Position numbers and translations under genes: made by a program
The notes under the pieces: model-generated
The model's input: only the letters and a program-made list of their open reading frames with translations
Told to the model about the DNA's origin: nothing
Databases searched by the model: none
Origin: an uncultured Campylobacter sp.
GTDB lineage: Bacteria; Campylobacterota; Campylobacteria; Campylobacterales; Campylobacteraceae
Length of the DNA stretch: 64,000 bases
Assembly (NCBI GenBank): GCA_963522765.1
Contig: CAUQZM010000001.1
Span: 18,329-82,328 of the forward strand
Reading direction: 5' to 3'
Shown here: piece by piece, positions 28,466 through 50,314 of the stretch
Numbering within the stretch: position 1 is the stretch's first letter
How the letters are laid out: the number at the start of each line of letters is the position of its first letter

Positions 28466-29395
28466 TTATCTATTTTCGGAATTGCAGGTTTTAAATTTAT
28501 CATAAACCAATACTACAAAGGTAGAAAGCATAAGTCCTATTATTGCAGATATTGCTAAAATGATTAGTTTTTTAGGCTTTGCTGGGCGATCAGATAAAAC
28601 TATATTAGAAATTATATGAGAAGTTTTAAAATTAAAATCAGAAAGCCTACTTTCTATAATGCTCTTTTTCTTCATTAAATCAGGAATTTGTATTAGAGTT
28701 ATAGCGCTCATTTCATCGCTTATTTTAGGTATATTGTCGTTTAAAATTTTGTCTTTTATATTCATTAACTCCATCAGTTTTAATTCGCCAGCATCGCTAA
28801 GCTTTTCTTTCTTGTTCAGCATGTCTATTTGATCATCTATTTTGGCTATCTGAATACCTTTTAAATATTCTATGCGTTCTTTTAAAATACGAATTTTATC
28901 ATTTTTTAAATAACTTATCTGTGAATCAATACTTACCGATTGTTCACGTACAGCCTTTTTATATTCATCTAAAACTATAGCATCTTCTTTGCTTAAATCT
29001 GCCACCATCTCATCTATCTGTTTTTTTAGTAATTCGTTTGATTTGGCAAACGCCGTTATAATAAATATATTGGCGCTATCTTTATCGGCGACGATACTAT
29101 CAACCGTTACGTTCTTGTCCTTAATATCCTTTAGTCCATCAATATATTTTACTCTAAGCTCATGCATCCGAACGGATCTTTCGGTTATATACTGTGGCAT
29201 ACCAGTTTCATTATTATAATAGGCGGTTTCTATCATCGCCGTTGCTTTATACCACGGAGTAGCAAATAGAATGTACAAAAGCCCAATCGCAATAAATCCG
29301 CAAGTTACTATACAAATTTGCTTTTTATATTTCCATATCTTTTTTGCCAAATCTAGCAGATCAATCTCATCATCTTCACAATAATTCTGTTGCAT
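28466..29395 (-). CDS. wzz: Polysaccharide co-polymerase / chain-length determinant (Wzz family)
   Basis: N-terminal DDEIDLLDLAKKIWKYKK plus a TM helix, a long coiled-coil middle, and a C-terminal PAKPKKLIILAISAIIGLMLS TM helix. Confidence 0.75.
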   Translation of the reverse strand: MQQNYCEDDEIDLLDLAKKIWKYKKQICIVTCGFIAIGLLYILFATPWYKATAMIETAYYNNETGMPQYITERSVRMHELRVKYIDGLKDIKDKNVTVDSIVADKDSANIFIITAFAKSNELLKKQIDEMVADLSKEDAIVLDEYKKAVREQSVSIDSQISYLKNDKIRILKERIEYLKGIQIAKIDDQIDMLNKKEKLSDAGELKLMELMNIKDKILNDNIPKISDEMSAITLIQIPDLMKKKSIIESRLSDFNFKTSHIISNIVLSDRPAKPKKLIILAISAIIGLMLSTFVVLVYDKFKTCNSENR

Positions 29396-29417
29396 ATTTC
29401 TTCTCCAAATTTAAAAT

Positions 29418-34311: not shown

Positions 34312-35384
34312 TTGTCATAATCCTTCAGTATAAATGATATATATATATATAGAATAAGCTCATGCAAAGCATTGACAAATAGACAAGAAGCTAATAAAGA
34401 TATAAAGGCAATAAATAAATTATGATTTGTCAATATAGCTTTTCTTAAAATATAAATTATAAAAGCACAAAACAAAATATAACCAATAACACCGAATTCA
34501 GAAAATACTTGTAGAAAAAGATTGTGTTGTTCTAATATCAAATTCATACGCTCTAAAGCATTTAAATGCAATAAGTACTCTGAATCAAGAATTAAATTTT
34601 TGCCATTAAAATATCCTATACCAAAACCATAATTATCAAAACCCATATTAGCATATGCAACATGTAACTGATACCTAAGAGACGAAAAATCATCTATTAA
34701 AATTTTATTATCTATATCCAAAATGCGGTCCACTCCAAGTATCAAAAAAGGATATAGAAATATAAATAAAATATATAGACATCCAAAATAAACACTTACT
34801 CGTTTGTTTATCTTCGAGATTATAGACAAAAATATAAATAAGAATAAGGATATTATAAAGCTCCTATTAGCAGTAAAAATTATAGATAAAAAAGATATGG
34901 CAGAATAGTAGTATACTTTTTTTGTTGCGAATAAAAGACCAATTCCGGTAAGCAATAATGCAGTAAAATTAAATTCTCCAATAACCCCCCTGTATCGTGG
35001 CAAATAAAAACCAAAAAAATCTCTATAGCCAGCATTATTGCCCATGTATACTTCTAAGATAAAAACAAGTATAATAAATATAAGCATTATTTTTAATATT
35101 AAAAATATATCATACTTTTTTAATACCTTGATTAAATACATAGAGAAAAATAAAATTAAAGTAAGTTGCAGTAGCCTAAAAATCGATGATATCCGGGCAG
35201 TATATACACATACTACAACATTGCATATTATCATAATAAAAATTGGAATATAGCATGCATATATCTTTTTATACTTAAATATGTAAATAAATCCAAAAAT
35301 GGGAGCCAAAGCATTAAAATATAATGGTAGACTAAATGGTTGTTTTAATATAAAAAAAGGTAAAAGTCTATAAAGTAACTTCAT
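34308..35384 (-). CDS. wzy: O-antigen polymerase (Wzy) or ligase-like multi-pass membrane protein
   Basis: About 10 hydrophobic spans, very low GC, and its position among glycosyltransferases. Wzy and WaaL cannot be told apart by eye. Confidence 0.6.
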   Translation of the reverse strand: MKLLYRLLPFFILKQPFSLPLYFNALAPIFGFIYIFKYKKIYACYIPIFIMIICNVVVCVYTARISSIFRLLQLTLILFFSMYLIKVLKKYDIFLILKIMLIFIILVFILEVYMGNNAGYRDFFGFYLPRYRGVIGEFNFTALLLTGIGLLFATKKVYYYSAISFLSIIFTANRSFIISLFLFIFLSIISKINKRVSVYFGCLYILFIFLYPFLILGVDRILDIDNKILIDDFSSLRYQLHVAYANMGFDNYGFGIGYFNGKNLILDSEYLLHLNALERMNLILEQHNLFLQVFSEFGVIGYILFCAFIIYILRKAILTNHNLFIAFISLLASCLFVNALHELILYIYISFILKDYDK

Positions 35385-36511
35385 AAATCTTTAAGCAAGG
35401 TGCTTAGCTTGCCATTCCATGTAACATGTTCTAGATGAAACCTCTGCCTAGCTTCTCTACTTTCAATACAATTCAGAAAGCTATCGCTATTACATGCAAA
35501 ATACACATAATCACTCATATCTTTAATCTGCTCCCACTCCACGCTAACAACTTTTAATCCGCAAGCTAGATACTCATACATCTTTAGCGGATTTATACTA
35601 TTTACTAAATCAGGATAATCCTTAACATTAAAAGGAATTATGCCCACCTGCGAATTATATAAAAACGCAGGAATTTTAGCGTATGGAATAGAGCCTAAAA
35701 TATGGATATTTTTTAACTTTTTGAGTAAAGATAGATCTTTTTGCTCCGGACCTATTATAATAAAACTAAAATTTGGCAAATTTTTAGCGCAGTAATACAC
35801 TAAATCCACATCAAACCAATCATGTATTGCGCCTACGTAAATTACCCTAGGCTCAGGAATATCTTCAAGCTCCTGCGGCAAAGACCTGTCTGCCGTTTTA
35901 AAAAAATCGAGATCAATGCCATTTGGCACATATTTCATTTTAGATTTATCTTTTATTTGATCGTATTTTTCTTTTAAATTTTTTGCCGTATAAATGACAG
36001 CATCTACTTTATTTGCGATATTTATCTCGGCGTTAAACTGCGCATCAGAAACCGCATTAAAGCCTTTTGAATAATCGGCTATCCTTAAAATCGATTTTTT
36101 ATAAGTTATAGTATCCAGCAAAAAACCAAACAATGGGCTATCAAACCACAATATATCAACCTCGCCAAAACCCCGCTCTCTTATAAAATTTAATAAATTT
36201 GGATACGTAAAATTTTGCCAATTATTTAAAACAAAATTTGACGATAAAATCGGCTTATTTTGAGGCGTAAAAAAGGAGTGCGGAACATAATAAAAAATAC
36301 CGCCTGCGCCCTCGCCTCCTTTTTTATAAATTCTTTCCCGCTCTTTTAATTCGTTACTATTTGCAAAAATTTTATGTATCGGCGAGATAGGATTTGAGAT
36401 AAAAAGCACCTCATATCCTAGCTTTTCAAACGCCCTGGCATAATGATGGCTACCGACCTGAAACGGCGAAGTATAGTAATTCGCAACGGCCATTAAAACT
36501 TTTTTAGACAT
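35381..36511 (-). CDS. Glycosyltransferase (GT-B fold, GT4-like)
   Basis: 376 aa. C-terminal IIPFN...NPLKMYEYLACGLKVV pattern. Operon context. Confidence 0.65.
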   Translation of the reverse strand: MSKKVLMAVANYYTSPFQVGSHHYARAFEKLGYEVLFISNPISPIHKIFANSNELKERERIYKKGGEGAGGIFYYVPHSFFTPQNKPILSSNFVLNNWQNFTYPNLLNFIRERGFGEVDILWFDSPLFGFLLDTITYKKSILRIADYSKGFNAVSDAQFNAEINIANKVDAVIYTAKNLKEKYDQIKDKSKMKYVPNGIDLDFFKTADRSLPQELEDIPEPRVIYVGAIHDWFDVDLVYYCAKNLPNFSFIIIGPEQKDLSLLKKLKNIHILGSIPYAKIPAFLYNSQVGIIPFNVKDYPDLVNSINPLKMYEYLACGLKVVSVEWEQIKDMSDYVYFACNSDSFLNCIESREARQRFHLEHVTWNGKLSTLLKDL

Positions 36512-38594
36512 TTTTCATCAACTTCCCATATCCATTTGAATATAACTCAAATTTACTATAATAAAATTCTCTATTTGCCATATCGATAATCTCCAGCCTA
36601 TCCTCTTTTATCTCAAATTTTCTAATTATCTTTACGCCCTTGTATTCTGCGGCTAGGCTTATAAAATTTTCTCCAAAATCCGTCACTTCGCATCTGCATT
36701 CCGCAAACATTCCAAATAGTCCTATCGCCCCCTCGCCCCAACTATTTTGCTCTAGATCTTCCACGATCGGTACGTTGTGAGCCTTGACGCTTCTAAATTC
36801 ATTTCTTCTGCCGGGAAGCGGCGTATAAAGATAGGTGCCGGGATCTCTCGCTATATCCAGCCCGTCTATCCACAGCTCGTAGCCTAGCTTATCGTTGTGC
36901 GTATGTCCACCGTGACCCTTTTGTCCAAGCGGCGTAGCGCAGACGGCGAGGTAAAATTTGCTGGACTTGAAGATAAAAATTCCGCTATCCGGATAAAATA
37001 TATTTTTGATCTCTTGCGAATTTGGAATTTTAAATTCCGTGCCCTTTTGATATGGTAGTTCGCTAAATTTCGCACCCGAGGCGCTCGGACTTTTATATGT
37101 TTTATCGCCTGCTTGCAGCGTACGCCCTGCGAGCGAGCGAATAAAACTCCTCTCAAAGCAAAAACCGTTTTTAAATATCTCATCGTCAAAAATCCCGTCC
37201 ATGCAGCTAATTAGCGTGGAGTGGTTTAAGATATTCTCATCCCAAAACAGCTCGTCGCCGCCCTCAAAGCCGCTCAAATTTAGATATTTTCGCACGGCTT
37301 GTTCGTTGCTCAAGAACTCGCCGTTTGGGCTAAATTTAAAAAACCCGCCGCTATCGTTATCGCCGAATTGCGGTACTTCGCCGTTTGGCTTTGTAATGTC
37401 CGCGGTAAACCTGCCGATTTTATACAGCCTGTCCACGAACCACTGCGGCAGCGCTATTTGTCCGTTTAAAATTTTAAATTCCTGCTCGTCCGGCGGCAAG
37501 AGCTTCGGCTTTTTGCGCCAAAGCTTTGCATCATAATTTTTTAGCGATGAAATTTTTTCGCTTTTTAGGCCCAGTACCAGAGCCGCGGCATATGCCATTA
37601 GCTCGCCGCTTAGGCGGTGGTAGCTCGTAGAGCTCTCAAAATTTCCGCCGTCTTGGCAAAATTCATTTTTCATTTCACGGATTACTTCTTGCACGGCAAA
37701 CGCTAGCCACGCGTCCGTCTCGCCGCCGCCGTCCAAATACGAGCACGCATACAGCAGACCCACGATATCGCTCAGATAGTGATTTGACGTAAGATGCGGC
37801 GAATATTCTAGATTATTCACGACATGAAGTGCATGTTCGTAGACGCTATTTGAAAAAGTCTGCTTGAAATTTTGATCCAAAATTCCACCCTCATCCATCT
37901 GGCAAAACATATCGTAAGCCGCCAGCATGTTGGCGACCCTGATGCCAACGTCCATCGTGCAGGTCCAATTTACGCCCATTCTAGGCGGATTATTGCGGAT
38001 AAAATCTAAAATTTGGTTTTTAAATTCTTTTAAATTTTGCTCTTTTAAACTCGGATCTACTATCGCAAAAATAGCGAGCTGCGGCAAGTGCTGCAACCTC
38101 GCAAGCTCCCACGGCACCTTTATATCGCTGCCGAGCTTATGGGCTATGCGCTGATCTTTGTACCATTTTTTTTCGCTCCACCGAAAGCCGCTTTTAAAAT
38201 CCTTTTGCCAATCGATCGGCTCGTAGCCTTCGGACGCGCTCGCGGGCGCCGCGACATTCATATCGTATTTGTAGCCCTCAAGCCCGAGCGCCGCGCTATC
38301 ATAGCTATTTTTTACCCAGCCGCTACCGAACAGATCAAATTTATGCTCGATGTACATTTTAGATAGATATTTTGCGACATCCGGATCGATATTTGACAGG
38401 TCGAGCTCTTTTGTATTTATATAGCTAGTTTTGATAATAGAAACGTTAAAATTTATGTGAGTATTGCCTAGCAGATCGCACATTTTTTGAAATTTATTCT
38501 TTGCGATATTTAAAATTTTATTAGCTATTTTTGCAGCCAACGCATCAAACGGCATTGATCTAGCTTTTTTAAGATAATAAGAAATTCTACTCAT
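36504..38594 (-). CDS. Heparinase II/III-like protein (696 aa), apparently cytoplasmic
   Basis: The C-terminal GHGGHTHNDKLGYELWIDG resembles the heparinase II/III family His cluster. The N-terminal region is alginate-lyase-like. No signal peptide or TM segment at the N-terminus (MSRISYYLKKARSMPFDALAAK). Confidence 0.65.
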   Translation of the reverse strand: MSRISYYLKKARSMPFDALAAKIANKILNIAKNKFQKMCDLLGNTHINFNVSIIKTSYINTKELDLSNIDPDVAKYLSKMYIEHKFDLFGSGWVKNSYDSAALGLEGYKYDMNVAAPASASEGYEPIDWQKDFKSGFRWSEKKWYKDQRIAHKLGSDIKVPWELARLQHLPQLAIFAIVDPSLKEQNLKEFKNQILDFIRNNPPRMGVNWTCTMDVGIRVANMLAAYDMFCQMDEGGILDQNFKQTFSNSVYEHALHVVNNLEYSPHLTSNHYLSDIVGLLYACSYLDGGGETDAWLAFAVQEVIREMKNEFCQDGGNFESSTSYHRLSGELMAYAAALVLGLKSEKISSLKNYDAKLWRKKPKLLPPDEQEFKILNGQIALPQWFVDRLYKIGRFTADITKPNGEVPQFGDNDSGGFFKFSPNGEFLSNEQAVRKYLNLSGFEGGDELFWDENILNHSTLISCMDGIFDDEIFKNGFCFERSFIRSLAGRTLQAGDKTYKSPSASGAKFSELPYQKGTEFKIPNSQEIKNIFYPDSGIFIFKSSKFYLAVCATPLGQKGHGGHTHNDKLGYELWIDGLDIARDPGTYLYTPLPGRRNEFRSVKAHNVPIVEDLEQNSWGEGAIGLFGMFAECRCEVTDFGENFISLAAEYKGVKIIRKFEIKEDRLEIIDMANREFYYSKFELYSNGYGKLMKNV

Positions 38595-39792
38595 TACCTA
38601 CGGCCTTTAAAATTTTATCCACATGTTTATCCCATGTGTATTTTTGGATCACTTCATCTCTGGCGCTATCGCCCAGGCGCTGTCTTAGCTCACCATCATC
38701 CACAAGCTTCTTCATGGCAATCTCCAGCTCGTCTATATTCCCAGGCTCTACCATATAGGCGATTTTGCCGTGTTCTAAAATTTCAGACATCTGAGCCATG
38801 TCGCTGCATATTATGGCCTTACCCATAGCCATATACTCAAACAGCTTGGTGGGACTTCCGAAAAACTCGCTTCCGTCTGGATTTGGCACGGTGGCATTGA
38901 TCAGGATATCGCAAGCGTTTAGAAATTTCGCCCCATCATATTGTGGAATCAGGCCTGTTAATACGACGTTTTCTTGCAAATTGAATTCCAAAATATATTT
39001 TTTTACGATTGGCATCCTAACGCCATCGCCTATCATAAAGAGCTTTGCTTTATTTTTATACTCAGGATATTTTTTTAGCAACTTACCAAAAGCCAGAGCT
39101 ATGTTTTCAGCCCCGTGCCACTGCCCAAACGTCCCTATAAAGCCGATTACGATTTTATTTTCAAGATTATATTTTTGCTTCACATCATCGCATTTTATCT
39201 GCGGATTATATTTGCTTGCATCAATACCATTTGGATTGACGATTATTTTGTTTTCATCCACTCCAAATTTTAAAAGAATATTTTTTAGTGCCTCGGACAC
39301 TACGACTATATGAGCCGCGCTATTTAAATTATATTTTTCTATAGCGGAAACGATAGGAAGTTTGAAAATTTTATAGTAAATGGTTTTAAAAATCCGCTTT
39401 AAAAACGTATCGTTATTTTTCCAATTTTTAATTTTCCATACATCAGATGAATTAAATTCCAAAACAAATGGTATATTTTTCTTTTTTGCTATATATGCCC
39501 CGCAAAAGCTAAACCCGTTATATCTTTGATATATCGCGTCGGCCTTTAAATTTTTACAATATTTAATTATCTTAAAATTATAAAAAAGCTCAAGTATATC
39601 TTTTAGTAAAAGCGGTATTTTTATAGGCTTAACGATTGTGATATCTTTGTCTACATCGGGCAAAAAATCGTTTGAAACAACAGATAACTCGACTTTTTTA
39701 TCCATAGCATTTATGACACCCGCGGTGTGCCCTACCGAACCGCCAGCCTTTAAGCCAAACCAATAAAGCGTTCTAAGATAGAGGATTTTCAT
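38587..39792 (-). CDS. Glycosyltransferase, GT4 family
   Basis: N-terminal GLKAGGSVGHTAGV and C-terminal SEFFGSPTKLFEYMAMGKAIICSD. Confidence 0.75.
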   Translation of the reverse strand: MKILYLRTLYWFGLKAGGSVGHTAGVINAMDKKVELSVVSNDFLPDVDKDITIVKPIKIPLLLKDILELFYNFKIIKYCKNLKADAIYQRYNGFSFCGAYIAKKKNIPFVLEFNSSDVWKIKNWKNNDTFLKRIFKTIYYKIFKLPIVSAIEKYNLNSAAHIVVVSEALKNILLKFGVDENKIIVNPNGIDASKYNPQIKCDDVKQKYNLENKIVIGFIGTFGQWHGAENIALAFGKLLKKYPEYKNKAKLFMIGDGVRMPIVKKYILEFNLQENVVLTGLIPQYDGAKFLNACDILINATVPNPDGSEFFGSPTKLFEYMAMGKAIICSDMAQMSEILEHGKIAYMVEPGNIDELEIAMKKLVDDGELRQRLGDSARDEVIQKYTWDKHVDKILKAVGNE

Positions 39793-40760
39793 TATATATC
39801 GCCCACCCGCATAAATTTTAGCCTAAATTTATCTTTTGCATATTTTATCATATCGGCATCAACGTGTATCGTAGGAACAAAATCCTTACCGCTCAAGCCC
39901 CCCACATCCAAATCCTTTATGGAGAAAAATTTACATTCCGCCTTATCGGCGATACTCGCAAGAAGCCTTTTATATTCATTTATTAATTTATCATTTATAC
40001 TTATTGTTACGTATTTCTTATCTTTAAAACTATACTTCAAATTTAAAAAATTAAAACTATGTAAAAAAAGCACTATTATACAATTTTCAGGCATCAGATC
40101 TATCGCTTTTAAAATTTCATCCGCACTAGAGCCGTATCTAAAATCAAATTTTTGAAAACTACTTTTTGTTTTTATAAAACCGTAATGCTTTTGTTTTTCA
40201 TAAACGCTCACGGGCAGCTGCAACACGCCGTTTTTTTCGGACACTTTATTTATGTAATCATAGTTTATCTTGCAATTTCCGTTTTTATAGAAAAACGAGC
40301 TGTCTATAAAAATATCATTAAGTTTCAAAGCCTGAATAGTATCGTCGTTCGCTCCATACCCACCAGCCCTATGAGCCAAGACGTCTATACCGATCCACTC
40401 TTGTATCTTTTGCTTACCAAATTTTATAATTTCTACTTGTTCATCCAAGCTATACTGCCACATAAATTTTCTATTTTTATCATATCTGCTGGACGGATGA
40501 GTATGTAAATTTACGCCGTGTCCGCCCCGGATAATATCGCAACATAACCGATCAAATTTATGCTCGCCGTACCTTTCATAAGGATACACATCCACAAAAT
40601 GCTCCAGCATCGCACCGTATTCGCTCGCCAGATCATTTATAAGCTTTACGCCTACTTCCCTACCCAGGATCTCGCCTTTTATAAAAATCTCAAACGCATC
40701 GGACCTATCCGCATGCAGTTCGCCGACTTCAGTATCACAGGTTATCAAAATTTGTTTCAT
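39792..40760 (-). CDS. Hypothetical; possibly polysaccharide deacetylase-like (tentative)
   Basis: ILITCDTEVGE and GVNLHTHPSS resemble the Asp and His metal motifs of CE4-like or WalW/WbmS-type proteins. Based on weak pattern matching only. Confidence 0.4.
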   Translation of the reverse strand: MKQILITCDTEVGELHADRSDAFEIFIKGEILGREVGVKLINDLASEYGAMLEHFVDVYPYERYGEHKFDRLCCDIIRGGHGVNLHTHPSSRYDKNRKFMWQYSLDEQVEIIKFGKQKIQEWIGIDVLAHRAGGYGANDDTIQALKLNDIFIDSSFFYKNGNCKINYDYINKVSEKNGVLQLPVSVYEKQKHYGFIKTKSSFQKFDFRYGSSADEILKAIDLMPENCIIVLFLHSFNFLNLKYSFKDKKYVTISINDKLINEYKRLLASIADKAECKFFSIKDLDVGGLSGKDFVPTIHVDADMIKYAKDKFRLKFMRVGDI

Positions 40761-40773
40761 TCAAATCAACCAA

Positions 40774-41742
40774 TCATATTTTATTCTTAAACCAAAGTAT
40801 TGCCCGAAATAGTGTATTTAAGAATGATCTATAAATCAATATTCCTCCAAAATAATATCGCAATTCACCACCAAATCTATCTTTAAATCTATTTATGCTT
40901 ATTGACTTCTCATCTTCACCAAAAGAGCAGCCGCCAAAATCATACTGGGCAATACCATTTTTTTTAAAATATCTTATTGCCTCCCATTGCAACAAATTCG
41001 AAGATCCCAAAATACAATTATTTATAGAACCACCATGCCAATATATAGACATATTGTCAGAAATTATAAAAATTGCTCCAGCTTGAATAATACCATCGTG
41101 TTTTGCAAAAAAAATTTTTATTCTATTTGTTTTATTTAACGCAAAAAAATACCTTAATAGATACTCAACTTTTAAGGATGGCTTATTTGATCTGGCATAC
41201 GTTTCGATAGTAATCTTCTGAAAATCATATATTCCTTGCTCGCTGGTGTCCTCTAATATTTGCACATTTTCTTTTTGCGCCCTTCTTATAACATTACGGT
41301 GTTTGCTATGTATATTAGAAAATATTACGTCTTCATTTTGAGTTAAATCTAAAACAGATGAGCCGTATCTATATATTTCATTAAAATTATTTAGTTCTAA
41401 AAAATCTATATTTGTAAATTTTGATAATGTGATAGAGTAAAAAATTACCTTAAAGGGATTAAAGACTCTTAAAATTTCTTTAAAGGCGATATCCAGTAAT
41501 TCGGTAGTTTGAATATTTGGCTCTGAAATAATATTGATATATCTAAAATATCTAAAACCTACTACGAAAAACTGCCATTTAAAAATAATATCTTTATCTT
41601 TTATGATTAGAAAATACGGAATTGAAAATTTACCACTAGTATTTGCAAATTCAAATAGTTGTGTTGGATTCTTTATACTAATATTCCACTCTATCGGGTT
41701 AATTAAATCTTTTGTAAGAATTCTAATTTCCATTAAGGACAC
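40774..41742 (-). CDS. FemAB-like / GNAT-fold acyl- or aminoacyl-transferase
   Basis: HSKHRNVIRRAQKENV, YWHGGS and NLLQWEAIRYFKKNGIAQYDFGG resemble the FemAB/lipid II glycyltransferase-like family. Confidence 0.55.
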   Translation of the reverse strand: MSLMEIRILTKDLINPIEWNISIKNPTQLFEFANTSGKFSIPYFLIIKDKDIIFKWQFFVVGFRYFRYINIISEPNIQTTELLDIAFKEILRVFNPFKVIFYSITLSKFTNIDFLELNNFNEIYRYGSSVLDLTQNEDVIFSNIHSKHRNVIRRAQKENVQILEDTSEQGIYDFQKITIETYARSNKPSLKVEYLLRYFFALNKTNRIKIFFAKHDGIIQAGAIFIISDNMSIYWHGGSINNCILGSSNLLQWEAIRYFKKNGIAQYDFGGCSFGEDEKSISINRFKDRFGGELRYYFGGILIYRSFLNTLFRAILWFKNKI

Positions 41743-42781
41743 CTCTTAACTTGCCTATTTTTTCTTCATCAAAGCAATCCAGGTCTATTAGCAATAGTTT
41801 TTTAGATAGTTCTTCGACATTTGCGGTCTTTTGTTCATGCCAATATTTTTGAAAATACGGCCATACTCTTCTGGTTTTAATATTAAGAGCGCCAAAAATA
41901 CGCTCTAGCTTCTCAAGTTCATCGCTATATATTACATAGTTTGTAAATATATTATTGTCTACATTAAAAAAGGACGGTAAAATTTCATTAAGCCTGGATG
42001 CAACTTTTTTCCTAGTATTAATCGCAAGCCTTAACTTTCTTATGGCGATCAAGATATATTTCAATTGCTCTGAAGTCATCCTGGTATCAAATATATGGAA
42101 ATTTTTTCCAATGTCATTGCTGGTTATTTTATAAAAATAGTTTTTTTGATAAAAACCAAGAATTTTGAGCAGCTTGGAGGCACTCATTTTAATAAATTTT
42201 AGAAGTTCACATTTTTTATATCCGCTGCAAGACCTATCGCTTTTAATGGCCTCCATATAATTAAAGGCTTCAGTGTTTAAAATGAATGTATGAAAAATAC
42301 TCTTATTTTTGTCCTGAATGCTTAGACATTCTTTCCGTATTTTATGATCTTTTGTAACTATTAATCCCCCGCCGGGAGAAATCATATTCTTTGAAAAAGA
42401 ATATATAGCGACATCGCCGATCAAATCTTTCTTTAAGCCATAACAATGAGCCCTATCTTCTATGTGAATAAGGTTGTATTTTTTTGCAATATCTTGTATT
42501 TTTACAACATGGTCCATATAGGCGCCATAATAATGGTGAGATATAATTGCTATCGTATCGGATGAAATTTTATTTTTTATATCATCTTGAATCATTTCTA
42601 AACTATGCACATCAATATCCACAAACACTGGAATCCCGCCAGCCTGTACTATTGCATCCGGCAGCGTTGTAGCGCATGTAAAAGCCGGCAATAAAACTTT
42701 TTTGCCTTTTGCGCCTATAGATAATAAAGCTAAGTATATCGCAGTTCTTGCATAACTCGTATATATTTTATATTTTGGCAT
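41723..42781 (-). CDS. DegT/DnrJ/EryC1/StrS family sugar aminotransferase
   Basis: TSYARTAIYLALLSIGAKGKKVLLPAFTCATTLPDAIVQAGGIPVFVDID and a candidate PLP lysine in YSFSKNM. Confidence 0.75.
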   Translation of the reverse strand: MPKYKIYTSYARTAIYLALLSIGAKGKKVLLPAFTCATTLPDAIVQAGGIPVFVDIDVHSLEMIQDDIKNKISSDTIAIISHHYYGAYMDHVVKIQDIAKKYNLIHIEDRAHCYGLKKDLIGDVAIYSFSKNMISPGGGLIVTKDHKIRKECLSIQDKNKSIFHTFILNTEAFNYMEAIKSDRSCSGYKKCELLKFIKMSASKLLKILGFYQKNYFYKITSNDIGKNFHIFDTRMTSEQLKYILIAIRKLRLAINTRKKVASRLNEILPSFFNVDNNIFTNYVIYSDELEKLERIFGALNIKTRRVWPYFQKYWHEQKTANVEELSKKLLLIDLDCFDEEKIGKLRGVLNGN

Positions 42782-43982
42782 AGTAAATCTTTGTATATAA
42801 AAATAGCGAATACAAATTTGATATCATACTTGACATACAGGCTCCAATCGCGCCCATTATCGGAACTAATAAAATACTAGATAAAGCAGTCATAATCGTC
42901 ATTTTTATATTAGCCTTTTTTAGCTCTTTCCCATATCCATGCCCATTAATCCAAGCATTATATGGTTGATAAAGGGCTTGGAAACAAACCGCGATAGACA
43001 TCAAAAGCAGCAAGAAAGAAACATCACTGTATTCTTCTTTTAGATAAAAATTTATAATTAAATACCCCAGTATATTAGCTAAAACAAACGCTAGAAATAC
43101 CCAAACTAAATTTGCCTTTAAAACGGCAGTGGGTATTTTGCTGCTATTTGCTAGCATTTTAAACATAGTACTACTCATCGCATTTGATAGCGAATTTATC
43201 GGGGTGGCCATAGAATTTGCCAGCCCATAAAAGCCAACATCCTTTGCACCCATAAAATACCCTATTAAAAGCCTGTCTATATTGTATGTCGAAACGTCAA
43301 TTACTCTACCTACATACACATGTATACCGTAGCGTTTGTTTTCTAAATTTATAATTCCAAAGATCTCAGAAAAATCACTAAAATTTGGTCGTAATATACA
43401 CCCATATATCACAAATGCAAGCGCATAAGACAATGAAAACGACAAAAGAGCATTTAGTGGAGTTAAGCCTTCAAAAATAAACAAAATGAATAAAAATACT
43501 ACAAATAAAATTTTAGAAAATATATTAAAACCAGCTAAATAACCTATGTGATTACTACCTTTTAATATTAGTTCCATAAAAAATGGAATTGTAAAACTCC
43601 AACTAACAAAGGATGAAATTCTAATGATATGACCTATCTTGTCATCAAAAATGATATCTAGTAGAAAAGAAATAGCTAACGAAAATAGTAAAAATAATAC
43701 AAATATAACACAGACTATAATTATCGATGCTCCAAATATCTTTTTTTCCAAATTTATATCATGATTTTTCGCCAGCATTTTTGAAGCGCTAGAAAAATAT
43801 CCGAACTCAAAAAATATGGAAATAAATATGATGATAGCTAAGGCCAAAGAATATATCCCAAAATCAACCGCTCCCATCTGTTTTGCCAAAAGCATATTAG
43901 ATACAAAGCCCACAACCATACCAAATATCTGTGCTACAAAAAGGAAGGTCGTTTGATAAAATACTTTATTTTTTGCTATCAA
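42768..43982 (-). CDS. wzx: Oligosaccharide flippase (Wzx / MOP superfamily)
   Basis: 404 aa with about 12 hydrophobic spans, and a typical N-terminus (VAQIFGMVVGFVSNMLLAKQMGAVDFG). Confidence 0.7.
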   Translation of the reverse strand: MIAKNKVFYQTTFLFVAQIFGMVVGFVSNMLLAKQMGAVDFGIYSLALAIIIFISIFFEFGYFSSASKMLAKNHDINLEKKIFGASIIIVCVIFVLFLLFSLAISFLLDIIFDDKIGHIIRISSFVSWSFTIPFFMELILKGSNHIGYLAGFNIFSKILFVVFLFILFIFEGLTPLNALLSFSLSYALAFVIYGCILRPNFSDFSEIFGIINLENKRYGIHVYVGRVIDVSTYNIDRLLIGYFMGAKDVGFYGLANSMATPINSLSNAMSSTMFKMLANSSKIPTAVLKANLVWVFLAFVLANILGYLIINFYLKEEYSDVSFLLLLMSIAVCFQALYQPYNAWINGHGYGKELKKANIKMTIMTALSSILLVPIMGAIGACMSSMISNLYSLFLYTKIYYAKI

Positions 43983-45816
43983 AATTTATCTCCAGCCATT
44001 TTTCTAAAGCAAATAATATCCACATCTTATATCCCTGATTTTTATATTTAGTGTGGATATCTAATAGCTTCTGCAAGAAAATTTTAGATATAAATTCATG
44101 TATCATAGCTTTTTTAAGCAATAATTCCTTTTGATACCATATAGGCATAATATTTTGCAAAAAAGGTGTTAAGAGCATACCGAAACCGACTTTTGGCCGA
44201 TTTAAAATATAGCTAGGAAGCTTATTTTTTGCTATTTCTTTTAAAATACTCTTGGCGCCATATTTCATCTTTGTATCGAACGATAGGCTAGAACTGTATT
44301 CAATAAGAAAATGATCCATAAACGGACTCCTTGCTTCTACGCTTTGGGACATCGTGGAATAGTCTATCTTCTGCAAGATAAGCTCGGGGAGTCGCATTTT
44401 ATATTCAACATTAAGAATTTTTCTTAAAAAACTATCAGGCAAATCATCTCTTATTTCAGACATATAATTATGTAGAATTCTATATGAATTAAAAGACTTA
44501 TCGCTCAACCAAAAACTTCTTTTTTCAAATTCGGTAAAGCCGTGTATGTGGCGCCTAGAAATAATGTCATTATTATAGAAAATATCAAACTTTCTAGCAA
44601 ATTTCTCTGGCAGGCTTTTAAACATAAAATTTAAATTCTTAAAATGCTTCAAAATATTATATTCTTTATTTAATTTTTCATATATAGGATAACCGCCCAT
44701 TTCATCGCCACCCTCGCCAACGATCATAACTTTAAGACTATTGCTTTTGCTAAGCTTTGATAGGAAATACAGCAAAGCGGAATTTACATCCCCGGTAGGG
44801 CTATCTATTTGTTTAGTCATATATTCTTTCGCTAACTCTTCAAAATCGTTGGAAGAAATAACGCTTTTAATAAATTTTACACCAAGTTCTTTTGAAAATT
44901 TTTGTGCTATTTCTGATTCGTCATATATATCATCCGCATCATAACTTATGTTAATTGCATCTATCTTTCCGGCCTCTTTACTTGAATAAAATAAATTTAA
45001 AGAGCTATCTATACCGCCGCTAAGCGCTATAGCTATATCGACGTCTGCTATATTTCTATATTTCATTGATTTTACAAGCAGATCTTCAGTTTTTTCGGTA
45101 GCCTGCAAAAAATTATCCGCGTTATCTACATTAATAAAATCCGCAATATTCCAATACTTTACTTTTTCTATTTTATTCTTTGTAATTTTTAAATAATGAC
45201 CGCATTCTAATTTATAAATATTAGCGAAAAAAGTATCAGGAGCATTGGTTGTTAAAAATGTCAGATAATTATATATCGCCTCCTCATTAATACGCTTCTC
45301 AACTACGCTTGCCTTAAAAAATGCATGAATTTCTGAAGAAAAATATAGAGCATTATTACTCATAGTAAAAAACAACGGCTTTTTACCCATTCTGTCTCTA
45401 ATAAGAATAGTTTCCATTTTTACTTTATCGTATAGGGCAATAGCAAAAAAACCGTTAAAATATTTTATGCATTCTAGTCCCCACTCTTTATAGGCATATA
45501 GAATAGTTTCGGTGTCAGAGTGATCCGTTTTAAAACTATATTTTGATTTTAATTTCTCTCTAATCTCTAAATGGTTATAAATTTCACCGTTAAAAATCAA
45601 AACTAAAGTATTTTCATCATCAACCATCGGCTGATCAGCTGTAGTAGATAGATCTAGTATAGACAGCCTTCTGTGTCCAAACACAACATTCTCATCAGAG
45701 TAAAAACCTTCGCTATCGGGCCCTCTATGTATTATTGCGCTTGACATATTTTTTATATCATCAATATCTTTCTGCGTTATTCCTTTATAAGAGACCTTAC
45801 CGACTATTCCACACAT
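43966..45816 (-). CDS. Asparagine synthase (glutamine-hydrolysing)-like amidotransferase
   Basis: N-terminal nucleophile MCGIVG and the PP-loop ALSGGIDSS. 616 aa. Confidence 0.85.
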   Translation of the reverse strand: MCGIVGKVSYKGITQKDIDDIKNMSSAIIHRGPDSEGFYSDENVVFGHRRLSILDLSTTADQPMVDDENTLVLIFNGEIYNHLEIREKLKSKYSFKTDHSDTETILYAYKEWGLECIKYFNGFFAIALYDKVKMETILIRDRMGKKPLFFTMSNNALYFSSEIHAFFKASVVEKRINEEAIYNYLTFLTTNAPDTFFANIYKLECGHYLKITKNKIEKVKYWNIADFINVDNADNFLQATEKTEDLLVKSMKYRNIADVDIAIALSGGIDSSLNLFYSSKEAGKIDAINISYDADDIYDESEIAQKFSKELGVKFIKSVISSNDFEELAKEYMTKQIDSPTGDVNSALLYFLSKLSKSNSLKVMIVGEGGDEMGGYPIYEKLNKEYNILKHFKNLNFMFKSLPEKFARKFDIFYNNDIISRRHIHGFTEFEKRSFWLSDKSFNSYRILHNYMSEIRDDLPDSFLRKILNVEYKMRLPELILQKIDYSTMSQSVEARSPFMDHFLIEYSSSLSFDTKMKYGAKSILKEIAKNKLPSYILNRPKVGFGMLLTPFLQNIMPIWYQKELLLKKAMIHEFISKIFLQKLLDIHTKYKNQGYKMWILFALEKWLEINFDSKK

Positions 45817-45831
45817 TATTTTGATCCGAAT

Positions 45832-47961
45832 TTACAATATAAAGCTTATCTCCGTCGTCTGCACCATATCCCAAAGCTCTATCGGCCAGCTTTTTTTGCT
45901 TCCTTTTAGAGCCCCAAATAGCGCCTCAAGCTCTTCGAGCTGCCCCTTTTGGCTTACGTTCGTTGAAATTTCTTTCACCCCAATTCCGTATCCTTTAAGA
46001 CTTTTATAGTCATCTAAAACGATGCTCTTGCCGTCAAAGTGAATCTCCATAAATTCCTTACTTAGCTCCTTGCTGCCGTTTGCGAAATACTCGATATTTG
46101 CTACCGAGCCGTCTTTGTATTTTAAGACGATGGATTTGTTATCCTCGGCGCTATATTTTTCATTACTCGGCGTGATCGCCTGCGAAAATACGCTCTGTAT
46201 CTCGCTGCCCGTCAGCGCCGTCATTAGATCTATTATGTGGCACGCTTCGCCCACCATTCTGCCGCCGTTTTCGTGCACCCAGTGATCCATCGGTATGTAA
46301 CCCGCGTTCATTCTATATCTAATTATCATCGGATTTATTCTAGCGCTCGTGTGCTTTTTTATCTCCTGTGCATAGGCGCTAAATCGCCTGTTAAATCCCA
46401 CGAATAAAAGGGGCTTGTCGCCTCCACCTTCGTAAAATTTCTTTATCTTTTCAAGCTCCTCTTTGTTTGTCGCAAGCGGCTTTTCTACAAATACGTTTTT
46501 GCCCGCTTCAAGCGCCTTTAAAGTAAGCTCCGCATGGCTATCGTGCCTTGTGGATATTATCACAAGATCGACGTTTTTGTCATTTAAAACATCGTCTAAA
46601 TTTGAAGTAGCGTAGTTCGCTCCGTATTGCTGCGCCACGGCCTTTGCTTTATGTCCGCTCCGGTTCATGATCGCGTAAATTTTATACTTGTCCGTAAGCT
46701 TTGAGATATTAGGCAGGTGCATACCGGTAGCAAATCCACCAACGCCTACGAATGCGACGTTTATCACATCTCTGTTTACGGGTATAGAATTTATAATGAT
46801 TTTTTTATCGTGATTTAGATAGTTATCAAGCTCGGTCAAATTTGCCTCGCCGTAGTCGAGCAAAACCATAAGCGGCTTATTCTGCGATGTTTGCAGCGAC
46901 TCAAACGCCTCCGTTACCTGCTCGATAGGGTATTTTGCGTCTATGAGCTTATCCAGCTTTATCAAATTTTCATTTACCAGCCTTAGATACTCGCTCATAT
47001 TTCGATTTTCGGTCCATCTGACGTAGCTAAACGGATAATCAAGCCCCCCCTCTTCGTAGCTCTTGTCGTAGCGACCAGGACCATAAGAGGTGGAGATGAG
47101 AAAATCGAGCTCCTTTTTATACATATCCTCTCTATTGATCTGCATGCCGGCAACGCCTACGAGCACCACTCTGCCCTTTTTCTTACACATCTGAAAACTT
47201 TGCGATAGCGGCTCGCTACTGCTCGTAGCGGCGGTAAATAGCACTCCATCGGCGCCGTATCCGCCGCTCCAGGATGAAACGACATCCAGCAAATCGTCTT
47301 TTGACGGGTTTATGACGAGCTCGGCGCCATATTCCTTTGCTATCTGTAAGCGCCTATCGTCAAAATCGCTGACCGCAACCCTTACGCCTGAAATTTTAAG
47401 CATCTGTACCGCAAGAAGCCCCAAAATCCCAGCTCCCACCACTACGCAGGTCTCACCCAGCCTTAGATCGATCCGCCTAACGCCCTGCATCGCTATGCCG
47501 CCTAGCGTCACGGTGCAAGCCCGCTCAAAGTCCATATCCTGCGGCATTTTCATAACTAAATTTTTTGGCACGTCTACGTATTCTGCATGGTTCGCAAGCC
47601 CTGCACCGGCTGCAGCGACGTGCTCACCGATTTCAAAATTTGAAACGCCCTCTCCGACTGCTATGACGACGCCGCTAAGCGAATAGCCGGTCGGACTTCC
47701 GCTATCAAGCTTGCCCTTTACCTTCGCATAGACGCTAGCTATTCCGTCGGATTTCACCATATTGATGACTTTTTTTACGTTCTCCGGCTGCTCCAAGGCT
47801 CTTCTAATTAAGCTCTTTCCGCTATTTGATACGCCGCTTATCTCGGTGCCCGCTGATATGCAGCTATTTACTACTTTTATAAGAACGCATCCCCTTGAAA
47901 CGCTCGGAGCAGGCATCTGCTCTGCTAAAACTTTACCTTTTTTAACTATTGCTTGTATCAT
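45832..47961 (-). CDS. Bi-domain oxidoreductase: N-terminal MDR/zinc-ADH-like domain fused to a C-terminal Gfo/Idh/MocA domain
   Basis: The N-half has the Rossmann motif VVGAGILGLLAVQ after an ADH-like GroES domain. The C-half has VAFVGVGGFATGMHLPN and EKPLA, typical of Gfo/Idh/MocA. Confidence 0.75.
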   Translation of the reverse strand: MIQAIVKKGKVLAEQMPAPSVSRGCVLIKVVNSCISAGTEISGVSNSGKSLIRRALEQPENVKKVINMVKSDGIASVYAKVKGKLDSGSPTGYSLSGVVIAVGEGVSNFEIGEHVAAAGAGLANHAEYVDVPKNLVMKMPQDMDFERACTVTLGGIAMQGVRRIDLRLGETCVVVGAGILGLLAVQMLKISGVRVAVSDFDDRRLQIAKEYGAELVINPSKDDLLDVVSSWSGGYGADGVLFTAATSSSEPLSQSFQMCKKKGRVVLVGVAGMQINREDMYKKELDFLISTSYGPGRYDKSYEEGGLDYPFSYVRWTENRNMSEYLRLVNENLIKLDKLIDAKYPIEQVTEAFESLQTSQNKPLMVLLDYGEANLTELDNYLNHDKKIIINSIPVNRDVINVAFVGVGGFATGMHLPNISKLTDKYKIYAIMNRSGHKAKAVAQQYGANYATSNLDDVLNDKNVDLVIISTRHDSHAELTLKALEAGKNVFVEKPLATNKEELEKIKKFYEGGGDKPLLFVGFNRRFSAYAQEIKKHTSARINPMIIRYRMNAGYIPMDHWVHENGGRMVGEACHIIDLMTALTGSEIQSVFSQAITPSNEKYSAEDNKSIVLKYKDGSVANIEYFANGSKELSKEFMEIHFDGKSIVLDDYKSLKGYGIGVKEISTNVSQKGQLEELEALFGALKGSKKSWPIELWDMVQTTEISFIL

Positions 47962-47981
47962 TAACTATACCTTGAAAAATA

Positions 47982-49181
47982 TTAAATATTAGTATTTCGC
48001 ACGCCGCAAAAATCCAAAATTTCTTTTTCTATTTTCAGCCCCTTAAATTCCTTATGTCCGACTAAAAATACGATAATGTCTGAAATTTCAATAGCCTTTT
48101 TATAATCCACTATCTCAAAATCCTTGTGAGCCTTGATATTGGGCTCTACGGCGACCACATCGACGCCGTCTGCGATCAGGCGTCTGGTTATATTTAGCGC
48201 AGGCGACTCCCGCAAATCGTCGATGTCGGGCTTAAAAGTAAGCCCCATGCACGCGACTTTGGGCTTTCTGCCGTTTTGCAGCTCAAATTTCAAAGCGGCG
48301 TTTTTGATTTTTTCAATACACCACTCAGCTTTGTGATCATTGACCTCTCTTGCGGATTTGATCAGCCTTGCTTCGTAGCCGCCCGCATGCACTATAAACC
48401 ACGGATCGACCGCTATGCAGTGCCCGCCTACGCCGCAGCCCGGGTTTAAAATATTAACTCGCGGATGGCGATTTGCTAGAGAAATGAGCTCCCAAACGTT
48501 AATGCCGAATTTATCGCACAAAATGCTAAGCTCGTTTGCAAAGGCTATGTTTACGTCGCGAAAGGAATTTTCGGTCAGTTTCGACATCTCTGCGGTTTTT
48601 GAGTCGGTCTGCAAAACTTCGCCTTCTACGAATTCTTCGTAAAATTCCGCCGTTTTTTCTGCAGCTTCTCTGTTTAGACCGCCCACGATCCTATCGTTTT
48701 GCGTGAGCTCTTTTAAAATTTTACCCGGCAAAACCCTCTCCGGGCAATGAGCGATATAAATTTTAGAAATATCAACACCGCCATTTTTTAAAATTTCACC
48801 TATCTTTTCGGTAGTACCTACCGGTGAAGTGGATTCTAAAACGACCATATTATCGTCTTTTACGTATGGTATTATAGATTTTGCCGCACTTATGACATAA
48901 TCGATATTTGGCACGTATCCGTCTCGAAACGGCGTCGGAACAGCTATGATAAAAACGTCTGCGAAATCAGGCTTAACGTCTGCTTTTAAATTTCCGCTCT
49001 GCACTGCTTTTTTAACAAATCCATCTAGTTCCGGCTCGACGATATGAATTTTACCATCATTAATCGTATCTACGACGCTCTGCACCACATCAACGCCATG
49101 GATTTTATAGCCCCTATTTGCCAAAAGCGCCGCCGTAGGCAGCCCTATGTACCCAAGACCTAAGATGCAAACTTTTTTCAT
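47982..49181 (-). CDS. wecC: UDP-N-acetyl-D-mannosamine dehydrogenase (UDP-glucose/GDP-mannose dehydrogenase family)
   Basis: MKKVCILGLGYIGLPTAALLA and the catalytic region GVGGHCI. Confidence 0.85.
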   Translation of the reverse strand: MKKVCILGLGYIGLPTAALLANRGYKIHGVDVVQSVVDTINDGKIHIVEPELDGFVKKAVQSGNLKADVKPDFADVFIIAVPTPFRDGYVPNIDYVISAAKSIIPYVKDDNMVVLESTSPVGTTEKIGEILKNGGVDISKIYIAHCPERVLPGKILKELTQNDRIVGGLNREAAEKTAEFYEEFVEGEVLQTDSKTAEMSKLTENSFRDVNIAFANELSILCDKFGINVWELISLANRHPRVNILNPGCGVGGHCIAVDPWFIVHAGGYEARLIKSAREVNDHKAEWCIEKIKNAALKFELQNGRKPKVACMGLTFKPDIDDLRESPALNITRRLIADGVDVVAVEPNIKAHKDFEIVDYKKAIEISDIIVFLVGHKEFKGLKIEKEILDFCGVRNTNI

Positions 49182-50314
49182 AATATTCCTTTTAAAAATT
49201 CCAGTATTTTTTTACAAGCTTTACCGTCGCCATACGGACTTGTACTTTTACTCATTTTATCATATTCATCTTTTAAATTTAATAATTTTTGCACCTCTTT
49301 TATGATATTTTCGCGCTTGGTGCCGATAAGCTTAACGCATCCTGCCCTTATCCCTTCGGGTCTTTCGGTAGTTTCTCTGATAACTAAAACAGGCTTGCAA
49401 AGGCTCGGCGCCTCCTCCTGGATGCCACCACTATCGGTTACTATCATATATGACTTGCTCATAAGATAGACAAAACTATCATACTCTAGCGGATCGATTA
49501 AAAATATATTCGAAATGCCCGATAAAATTTCTCCCACAGGCTTTCTTACATTTGGATTTAGATGCACGGGATAAACGATGTCGATATTTTCATTTTTTAG
49601 TGCTATTTCACGTAAAGCCTCACAAATATTAACAAAGCCTTCTCCGAAATTCTCTCGTCTGTGTCCTGTAACAAGAATAAATTTTCTATCACTAAGCTTA
49701 TATTTGGAATTTATAAAAGATAAAATTTTATTTTTTAGCAGCTTGTTGTTTTCGATTTTATCTATCGTCCACAAAAGTGCGTCTATAACGGTGTTGCCGC
49801 TAACGATTATATTTCTTGAATCTTTGCCTTCTTTTAATAGATTGTCTCTTGCATCGATGGTCGGCGCAAAGTGATATTTAGCTATGAGCCCTGTCATCTG
49901 CCTATTTATCTCTTCAGGAAACGGCGAATAGATATCATGCGTCCTAAGTCCAGCTTCGACGTGAGCAACATCTATCTTTTGATAATACGCCGCCAAAGAA
50001 ACGGCATAAGTAGTAGTCGTATCTCCATGCACAAACACGATGTCTGGAGTATATTCTCTAAATACATCGCGCATACCAAGCAAAACGCCTGACGTAATAT
50101 CGTACAGATCCTGCCCTTGCTTCATTAAATTTAGATCGAAATCGGGCTTTATCTCAAAAAATTCAAGCACCTGATCGAGCATCTGTCTGTGCTGCGCCGT
50201 AACGCAAACCTTCACTTTAAATTCTGCATGCTTTTGAAATTCCTTTATCAACAAAGCCATCTTAATGGCTTCCGGGCGCGTTCCAAATACTATTAAAATT
50301 TTTCTTTTCGTCAT
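49178..50314 (-). CDS. wecB: UDP-N-acetylglucosamine 2-epimerase (non-hydrolysing)
   Basis: ILIVFGTRPEAIKM, HVEAGLRT and DSGGIQEEAPSL. First gene of the operon. Confidence 0.9.
   Translation of the reverse strand: MTKRKILIVFGTRPEAIKMALLIKEFQKHAEFKVKVCVTAQHRQMLDQVLEFFEIKPDFDLNLMKQGQDLYDITSGVLLGMRDVFREYTPDIVFVHGDTTTTYAVSLAAYYQKIDVAHVEAGLRTHDIYSPFPEEINRQMTGLIAKYHFAPTIDARDNLLKEGKDSRNIIVSGNTVIDALLWTIDKIENNKLLKNKILSFINSKYKLSDRKFILVTGHRRENFGEGFVNICEALREIALKNENIDIVYPVHLNPNVRKPVGEILSGISNIFLIDPLEYDSFVYLMSKSYMIVTDSGGIQEEAPSLCKPVLVIRETTERPEGIRAGCVKLIGTKRENIIKEVQKLLNLKDEYDKMSKSTSPYGDGKACKKILEFLKGIL

Follow-up and report, generated by a model that had tools for sequence, protein, structure and literature searches.

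In a 64,000-nucleotide stretch of DNA from an uncultured Campylobacter sp. (assembly GCA_963522765.1, contig CAUQZM010000001.1, positions 18,329 to 82,328 of the forward strand; hereafter the window), we identified a set of nucleotide-sugar and sugar-modifying genes, at positions 40774–50314 and directly beyond, that we propose, with a probability of roughly 0.55, builds an N-aminoacylated, carboxyl-amidated mannosaminuronic acid through a logic like that of the Wbp/Vim pathway. The module is best described as a variant of that published logic, put together from largely non-orthologous parts and lying in a widespread cassette and a serotype-like variable locus of the Campylobacter concisus group. 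In the predicted route, WecB and WecC would supply UDP-N-acetylmannosaminuronic acid (UDP-ManNAcA), which would then undergo tailoring of the Wbp/Vim type. An AsnB-type enzyme would adenylate the C6 carboxyl and convert it to a carboxamide; a FemAB-fold enzyme would N-aminoacylate an amine of the sugar, most likely from aminoacyl-tRNA, as its fold, a conserved motif, and precedent suggest; and the adjacent glycosyltransferase family 4 (GT4) protein, judging from its gene position, may place the sugar on the lipid-linked repeat unit. The expected product would be an N-aminoacyl mannosaminuronamide, possibly with a second (3- or 4-) amino group.

In Porphyromonas gingivalis and Tannerella forsythia, WbpA, WbpB, WbpE, and WbpD make a 2,3-diacetamido uronic acid, and a predicted, as yet untested epimerase of T. 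forsythia is placed as WbpI in the authors' scheme; the products of the Wbp/Vim enzymes are 2-N-seryl-3-N-acetylglucuronamide and 2-N-glycyl-3-N-acetylmannuronic acid (PMC7468200, PMC13086638). VimE, a carbohydrate esterase family 4 (CE4) enzyme, is proposed to remove the C2 acetyl group, VimA, a FemAB-family protein matching TIGR03019, adds serine or glycine, and VimF, a GT4 protein encoded beside vimE, is the proposed sugar transferase, the gene order being vimA-vimE-vimF (PMC7468200, PMC13086638). Swapping vimA between species alters the added amino acid, which follows the species origin of VimA (PMC7468200, PMC13086638), and the amino acid is placed on the C2 amine freed by the deacetylase, not on a newly introduced amine (PMC7468200). 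Homologs of vimA and vimE were noted beside Wbp genes in loci of Pseudomonas, Aeromonas, Vibrio, and the PEP-CTERM type (Veith et al.; PMC7468200, PMC13086638), and the same authors connect Vim-like genes with two family models, TIGR03019 for FemAB and TIGR03108 for the amidotransferase (PMC7468200). The FemAB-deacetylase-GT4 order in the window is colinear with vimA-vimE-vimF, an arrangement that went unrecognized in an earlier sequence-only reading of this DNA, which had taken WbpB/WbpE and WlbA/WlbC as its precedents.

Predicted Aminoacylation by a FemAB-Fold Enzyme

The FemAB-like protein most likely N-aminoacylates a sugar amine, with aminoacyl-tRNA as the predicted donor. Its best sequence match in the Protein Data Bank (PDB) is an aminoacyl-tRNA-dependent peptide synthase, 9wqy (2.5e-12), with 9wqw also matched. 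For its AlphaFold model (predicted local distance difference test score, pLDDT, 95.3), the top fold matches are Sbb17 and Sba18 bound to the amino sugar streptothrisamine (1e-17), followed by FemX, FemA, and the aminoacyl-phosphatidylglycerol synthase domain of MprF, with acyl-CoA-dependent tandem GNAT proteins ranked lower. The model has the tandem GNAT-like fold of the FemABX type, with a TM-score of 0.75 to Weissella viridescens FemX. In a profile alignment, the family-invariant pair F286-K287 aligns with F304-K305 of FemX, the conserved C-terminal Phe-Lys that contacts the aminoacyl-tRNA end, and K287 is invariant in 36 homologs. It was previously reported that Orf11, of the same group as Sba18 and Sbb17, glycylates streptothrisamine in a Gly-tRNA-dependent manner (PMC12945691). 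The suggestion of the sequence-only reading that this enzyme adds an aminoacyl group thus finds support in sequence and fold matches that are aminoacyl-tRNA-dependent, some of them acting on an amino sugar.

The same matches bear on whether the FemAB-like protein could instead be an acyl-CoA (e.g., acetyl-CoA) N-acyltransferase that replaces WbpD, with a common 2,3-diacetamido uronic acid or uronamide as the product, a reading that we regard as quite improbable. The protein does match Pfam Acetyltransf_6, VimA was historically annotated as an acetyl-CoA transferase (PMC7468200), and CoA-dependent enzymes among the lower-ranked fold matches share the tandem-GNAT fold. However, the eleven best fold matches and every sequence match at E ≤ 0.001 are aminoacyl-tRNA-dependent, the Phe-Lys motif is conserved, the VimA swap turns serine into glycine, and re-acetylation would be futile with a deacetylase encoded next door.

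Two FemAB-like genes, often accompanied by a pair of DegT genes, occur in each of five environmental loci (L086, L119, L121, L122, and L140). Such pairing is compatible with aminoacylation or acylation of two different amines on one sugar.

A Recurrent Deacetylase, DegT, and FemAB Triad

The deacetylase-like protein encoded beside the FemAB-like gene has no Pfam, NCBIfam, or PDB sequence match of its own, although many of its homologs carry PF01522 and are named polysaccharide deacetylases. Its AlphaFold model (pLDDT 93.6) finds its best fold matches among CE4 polysaccharide deacetylases and ArnD, a lipid-linked sugar deformylase, with E values down to 4e-10. Residues D9, E11, H86, H88, and H234 are invariant in the family, in which the histidine spacing is H86-x-H88, not HxxxH. 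The deacetylase-like protein noted by the sequence-only reading is real and CE4-like by model and homologs, but its gene lies just outside the start that had been given for the module. The GT4 gene abuts the deacetylase gene, its likeness to vimF being one of position and family, and its product probably transfers the modified uronic acid. The order deacetylase, GT4, heparinase II/III-like gene is conserved.

A metagenome scan with a profile of the FemAB-like protein returned 179 related stretches, and 73 loci were analyzed. The deacetylase-like gene is the immediate neighbor of the FemAB-like gene in 40 of these 73 loci, a DegT gene lies at most three genes away in 33, and the full fused dehydrogenase described below occurs in 13. 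Both the deacetylase-like and DegT genes fall within four genes in 11 of 21 well-covered distinct loci. These counts indicate that deacetylase, DegT, and FemAB form a recurrent triad, as in Wbp/Vim.

UDP-ManNAcA Supply, Variable Slots, and Predicted Carboxyl Amidation

The assignment of WecB and WecC as the source of UDP-ManNAcA, already made by the sequence-only reading, holds, as both proteins score above curated cutoffs (Table 1). The top PDB match of WecC is the UDP-ManNAc dehydrogenase Cap5O (2e-98). The enzyme is of the ManNAc-specific type rather than WbpA, and it provides the N-acetylhexosamine (HexNAc) uronic acid 6-dehydrogenase that is a feature of the Wbp/Vim pathway.

Among 47 related Campylobacter loci, a constant frame of (wecB)-wecC-fused dehydrogenase on one side and deacetylase-like-GT4-heparinase-like-GumK-like on the other encloses a variable middle. 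The slot after the fused dehydrogenase holds either AsnB or a CapK-like set. The slot after wzx is occupied either by DegT and FemAB, which are gained or lost as a pair both in Campylobacter and in distant loci, or by one or two methyltransferases. The same gene order recurs in Propionispora hippei, which has, in turn, wecC, the fused dehydrogenase, asnB, wzx, DegT, FemAB, a methyltransferase, the deacetylase, GT4, and the heparinase-like and GumK-like genes.

The AsnB-like protein begins with MCGI, in which Cys2 is the nucleophile, carries the PP-loop SGGIDS, and combines GATase_7 and Asn_synthase domains. Its score against TIGR03108 (eps_aminotran_1), the clade that holds WbpS and WbqG, is 341 bits against a cutoff of 817, which leaves it outside that family. 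In sister Campylobacter loci (L017, L027, L034, L036, L039, L042, L045, and L051, and also L004/L005), three genes fill the AsnB slot, encoding an adenylating enzyme like CapK, an aminotransferase of class I/II (392 aa), and a HAD hydrolase. Both alternatives are carboxylate-activating, and their alternation supports uronate amidation. The CapK-containing set resembles the C. jejuni HS:2 machinery for serinol/ethanolamine glucuronamide, and this likeness suggests a substituted uronamide. The product of the AsnB-containing loci would be a primary amide, and the CapK set probably makes a substituted amide instead. The role of carboxyl amidotransferase that the sequence-only reading gave to the AsnB-like protein gains further from the precedent of WbpS, an AsnB paralog that forms a uronamide, as demonstrated by deletion (PMC7468200, PMC13086638), and that is required for the HexNAc uronamide (HexNAcAN) of Helicobacter pullorum (PMC6025236).

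It is very unlikely, in our estimate, that the tailoring genes act on some other residue of the repeat unit (e.g., a GlcNAc installed by the GT4), with AsnB amidating something else, such as an aminoacyl carboxyl, or forming an amidine. Several cassettes have no wecB or wecC nearby, FemAB/deacetylase pairs are found in loci without uronic acid genes, and the authors of a study on the T. forsythia O-glycan locus assigned AsnB to Pse5Am. By contrast, wecC lies right beside the cassette not only in the window but also in Propionispora and many other cases, the set that alternates with AsnB in its slot likewise activates carboxylates, and the genetics of WbpS favor a uronamide role.

The Fused Dehydrogenase, the Short DegT Protein, and the Acceptor Amine

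The sequence-only reading described the dehydrogenase of this module as fused to a medium-chain dehydrogenase/reductase (MDR), alcohol dehydrogenase (ADH)-like domain, and Pfam confirmed this, with ADH_zinc_N at residues 180–299 and GFO_IDH_MocA at residues 400–511 of the 709-aa protein. The N-terminal MDR/ADH-like domain is without the canonical His/Glu zinc ligands, and in the C-terminal Gfo/Idh/MocA domain the EKP motif and the Rossmann glycines are invariant among relatives. The best PDB matches of the fusion are generic sugar and inositol dehydrogenases. The protein is widespread, as 301 genome stretches were matched, with 51–69% identity across Campylobacterota, Firmicutes (Negativicutes), Bacteroidota, Chlorobi, Desulfobacterota, and candidate phyla. 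As a constant neighbor it accompanies wecC in more than 300 loci, most of which lack an aminotransferase. The commonest genes around it in a set of 37 diverse loci are GT4 (14), AsnB, Wzx, and heparinase-like (13 each), wecB (11), wecC (9), and CapK-like (8), as well as methyltransferases; the short DegT protein accompanies it in two.

That DegT-family protein has 352 aa, is about 40 residues short at its N-terminus, and matches only the N-terminal half of the Pfam profile. It belongs to a small divergent subfamily, is not an ortholog of WbpE, and retains the pyridoxal phosphate (PLP) lysine K131 and D109, which are invariant within the subfamily. A truncated pseudogene was considered and rejected, because the short form is kept in Propionispora and Campylobacter with its catalytic residues invariant. 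Distant members of the subfamily are likewise encoded next to FemAB-like genes, and their loci also carry the fused dehydrogenase and the heparinase-like gene. As the sequence-only reading had stated, no hexapeptide acetyltransferase is present in the operon: Pfam found no Hexapep domain in its 17 open reading frames (ORFs), a six-frame hexad scan for left-handed beta-helix (LbH) acetyltransferases, calibrated on two Pfam-positive LbH proteins, was negative, and the genes leave no intergenic space for a hidden one.

The sequence-only reading took the fused dehydrogenase and DegT as equivalents of WbpB and WbpE, which the wider comparison does not bear out. The fusion usually occurs without an aminotransferase, and a further class of Campylobacter loci has, besides the fusion, a true WbpE ortholog (400 bits to P. 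aeruginosa WbpE). In three such loci (L012, L023, and L049), the WbpE ortholog, two LbH acetyltransferases, and a single-domain Gfo protein lie downstream of the same wecC and fusion. A short-chain dehydrogenase/reductase (SDR), another DegT, and a WbuX-like PP-loop protein complete what is a classical set for a diacetamido or acetamidino uronic acid. Given the rarity of DegT near the fusion and its coexistence with a Wbp trio, the fusion is not established as the WbpB-type partner of the aminotransferase, and we have downgraded it as a WbpB equivalent. It may supply a keto intermediate that DegT aminates, or it may perform an oxidation-reduction epimerization; that DegT intercepts the keto intermediate of such an epimerization is speculation.

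Two amines are candidate acceptors for the aminoacyl group: a new amine from the short DegT, favored because DegT and FemAB co-vary, and the C2 amine that the CE4-like deacetylase would unmask, favored by the Vim precedent and the adjacency of FemAB and deacetylase. A possible but clearly less probable alternative to the Wbp/Vim-like route follows the first of these, with the fusion oxidizing C3 (or C4) of UDP-ManNAcA, DegT aminating it, FemAB aminoacylating the new amine, and the deacetylase acting separately, for example to leave a free C2 amine or on the polymer. The paired gain and loss of the adjoining DegT and FemAB genes, the persistence of the deacetylase without FemAB, the lack of another dehydrogenase or an LbH acetyltransferase in the operon, and compact deacetylase-FemAB-fused dehydrogenase-GT4-DegT modules in sediment metagenomes all fit this alternative. 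It sits less well with the fusion being mostly without an aminotransferase (short DegT in 2 of 37 loci) and coexisting with a separate 3-dehydrogenase/WbpE/LbH trio, and with the sole characterized system, which puts the amino acid on C2 after deacetylation.

A broader joint reading, which we consider rather unlikely, is that tRNA-dependent glycan aminoacylation is the work of a widespread FemAB and deacetylase (plus DegT) module, and that the fusion and the heparinase-like protein carry out a new epimerization of ManNAcA. The sub-module, seen in about 180 metagenome stretches and many phyla, would then plug into a serotype-like variable slot of the conserved cassette in Campylobacter, and the epimerization would combine oxidation-reduction at C3 or C4 with lyase-like C5 epimerization towards L-gulo-type uronic acids. 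The heparinase II/III-like protein, a conserved cassette partner without an obvious signal peptide, is a C5-epimerase only as a guess.

A core made up of the fusion, the cytoplasmic-looking heparinase II/III-like protein, a GT4, and often also a GumK_N-like glycosyltransferase is conserved in many phyla (301 genome stretches). In one metagenome locus with the fusion, DegT, and FemAB (L115), a 398-aa ORF at 6453–7649 matches the C-terminal domain of D-glucuronyl C5-epimerase weakly (18 bits, below cutoff), which is a faint hint of C5 epimerization as part of this chemistry and of an epimerase role for the heparinase-like protein. Literature searches on the heparinase II/III, AsnB, and Gfo/Idh/MocA cassette and on the bi-domain oxidoreductase returned nothing relevant, and no characterized member was found for the fused-dehydrogenase or cytoplasmic heparinase II/III-like families.

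Several points weigh against the N-aminoacylated uronamide proposed here. We know of no glycan structure for this organism group, and the likeness to VimA, VimE, VimF, and WbpS is one of family, fold, and position. Inference underlies the choice of donor (aminoacyl-tRNA or acyl-CoA) and of amino acid, the position acylated, and the nucleotide- or lipid-linked level of the reaction. The deacetylase is very divergent, with TM-scores to CE4 structures of just 0.5–0.6, and it remains in sister loci without FemAB, so that it is not strictly a partner of FemAB. The fused dehydrogenase is not WbpB-like in its match rank, and sister Campylobacter loci hold it alongside a canonical WbpB/E/D-type trio. 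Finally, the short DegT is only remotely like WbpE (32 bits), and a WbpD-type LbH N-acetyltransferase is absent.

Operon Organization and Genomic Setting

The module belongs to a 17-gene minus-strand operon that spans 28466–50314 and is of the Wzx/Wzy-dependent surface-polysaccharide type (Table 1). Its precursor and modification half, at 40774–50314, consists of seven tightly packed or overlapping ORFs, all on the minus strand; after the deacetylase, the operon continues with GT4, heparinase II/III-like, GumK_N-like glycosyltransferase, Wzy, two GT4, ManC, Bac_transf, and Wzz. Profile searches upheld the gene families called by the sequence-only reading among these ORFs. By contrast, its boundaries cut off the deacetylase, GT4, and heparinase-like genes of the same conserved cassette, and wzx, which lies within them, was left unmentioned.

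Table 1. Genes of the surface-polysaccharide operon and its tRNA edge, in window coordinates.
Feature	Position	Strand	Basis
wecB, non-hydrolyzing UDP-GlcNAc 2-epimerase	49178..50314	-	PF02350 410 bits; TIGR00236 507 bits (cutoff 210)
wecC, UDP-ManNAc 6-dehydrogenase	47982..49181	-	NF008286 533 bits (cutoff 459)
Bi-domain oxidoreductase, MDR/ADH-like + Gfo/Idh/MocA	45832..47961	-	Pfam
AsnB-type glutamine amidotransferase (WbpS-like role, predicted)	43966..45816	-	TIGR01536 391 bits; TIGR03108 341 bits, below cutoff
Wzx flippase	42768..43982	-	PF01943 87 bits
Short DegT-family PLP aminotransferase	41723..42781	-	PF01041 97 bits, profile positions 41-200 only
FemAB-fold transferase (VimA-like)	40774..41742	-	PF02388 47 bits; PF13480 (Acetyltransf_6); TIGR03019 E 7e-8
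Divergent CE4-like N-deacetylase (VimE-like position)	39792..40760	-	PF01522 homologs; AlphaFold fold match
GT4 glycosyltransferase (VimF-like position)	38587..39792	-	PF00534/PF13439; TIGR04063 114 bits
Heparinase II/III-like protein	36504..38594	-	PF16889, PF07940; co-occurs with fused dehydrogenase
GumK_N-like (GT-B) glycosyltransferase	35381..36511	-	PF22059
Rest of operon: Wzy, two GT4, ManC, Bac_transf initiating transferase, Wzz	28466..35384	-	Pfam
tRNA-Lys(CTT)	27999..28074	+	ARAGORN; downstream edge of low-GC cluster (GC profile)

The operon is bounded by tRNA-Lys on one side and by housekeeping genes (HhH-GPD, DUF815, mfd, leuS, and secDF) on the other. Its G+C (GC) content is low and mosaic (29–46%, against 47–51% in the flanks), at about 0.32 over the deacetylase, FemAB, DegT, wzx, and asnB genes (40001–46000) and 0.41–0.46 over the fused dehydrogenase, wecC, wecB, and heparinase-like genes (46001–50000 and 36001–38000). 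The low-GC segment matches the part of the operon in which related genomes differ, suggesting cassette exchange. Nearest among genomes are assemblies of uncultured Campylobacter and of the C. concisus group, in which the same flanks are found at about 94–95% DNA identity. Promoter/terminator and tandem-repeat scans of the window yielded nothing bearing on the sugar module.

The tRNA-Lys(CTT) gene sits directly past the Wzz end of the cluster and is a possible island boundary. Elsewhere in the window, two ORFs (24086–26050 and 56092–57777) contain long insertions of low complexity in which N, Q, S, A, and F abound and which resemble 'EQNS...NF...'; the latter ORF, with its GTNGKGS motif, looks like a FolC/Mur ligase. 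At 25468–25535 there is a tandem repeat of 24 bp.

Significance and Comparison with Known Systems

The Campylobacter concisus group comprises oral and gut pathobionts with essentially uncharacterized surface glycans, and the predicted zwitterionic or amide-bearing sugar would shape antigenicity and serotype variation. Proof of the Wbp/Vim logic has so far come from oral Bacteroidetes alone, in which it serves to anchor secreted virulence proteins, and the present locus would carry it over to ordinary Wzx/Wzy polysaccharides of another phylum. The sister loci, which differ in AsnB or the CapK set and in the presence of DegT/FemAB, are isogenic-like natural controls that make the enzyme functions testable. 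The locus also flags two abundant families, that of the 709-aa fusion and that of the cytoplasmic heparinase II/III-like protein.

Besides gene order, the window shares with Wbp/Vim a precursor that is a HexNAc uronic acid, a deacetylase (CE4-like in the window), a transferase of the FemAB family, a GT4, and an AsnB-type amidotransferase, and its predicted product is manno-configured like that of T. forsythia. The two differ in that the window uses WecB/WecC instead of WbpA/WbpI, is without WbpD, and has a divergent DegT subfamily member in place of WbpE, a more broadly distributed MDR and Gfo fusion as its dehydrogenase, and a highly divergent deacetylase. In addition, the operon that houses the window genes is of the Wzx/Wzy O-antigen type and also encodes a heparinase II/III-like protein and a GumK-like glycosyltransferase, and the Campylobacter host has no type IX secretion system (T9SS) and no known protein-anchoring role for the sugar.

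Of single enzymes, the Gly-tRNA-dependent, FemAB-like Orf11/Sba18/Sbb17 of the BD-12/glycylthricin pathways (PDB 9wqw–9wqy; PMC12945691) are the best match to the FemAB-like protein in both sequence and fold, and they aminoacylate the free amine of an amino sugar. However, identity is only about 18–20%, the pathway is one of secondary metabolism, and what these enzymes acylate is neither a nucleotide-linked nor a lipid-linked glycan precursor. The class II glutamine amidotransferases WbpS and WbqG (P. aeruginosa O6, Escherichia coli O121, and the H. pullorum N-glycan) share with the window enzyme a PP-loop synthetase domain and a place in a glycan locus beside a HexNAc uronic acid dehydrogenase, although the substrate in the window would be a ManNAcA derivative, not GalNAcA.

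The WbpA/B/E/D/I (WlbA-D) route to UDP-ManNAc3NAcA resembles the window in the oxidation and subsequent transamination of a HexNAc uronic acid, but the window lacks the LbH acetyltransferase, the WbpE ortholog, and the single-domain WbpB, and its 2-epimerase and 6-dehydrogenase are of the WecB/WecC type. In PEP-CTERM/XrtA loci, the likeness is at the level of family models: the window FemAB, AsnB, and GT4 proteins have TIGR03019, TIGR03108, and TIGR04063 as their top or second specific NCBIfam hit, although all three scores are far below the cutoffs, and exosortase and PEP-CTERM proteins are absent. The T. forsythia O-glycan locus, considered as a candidate match and in which no oxidoreductase or heparinase-like gene is mentioned, combines wecB, wecC, asnB, and methyltransferases with a glycan that contains ManNAcA and ManNAcCONH2.

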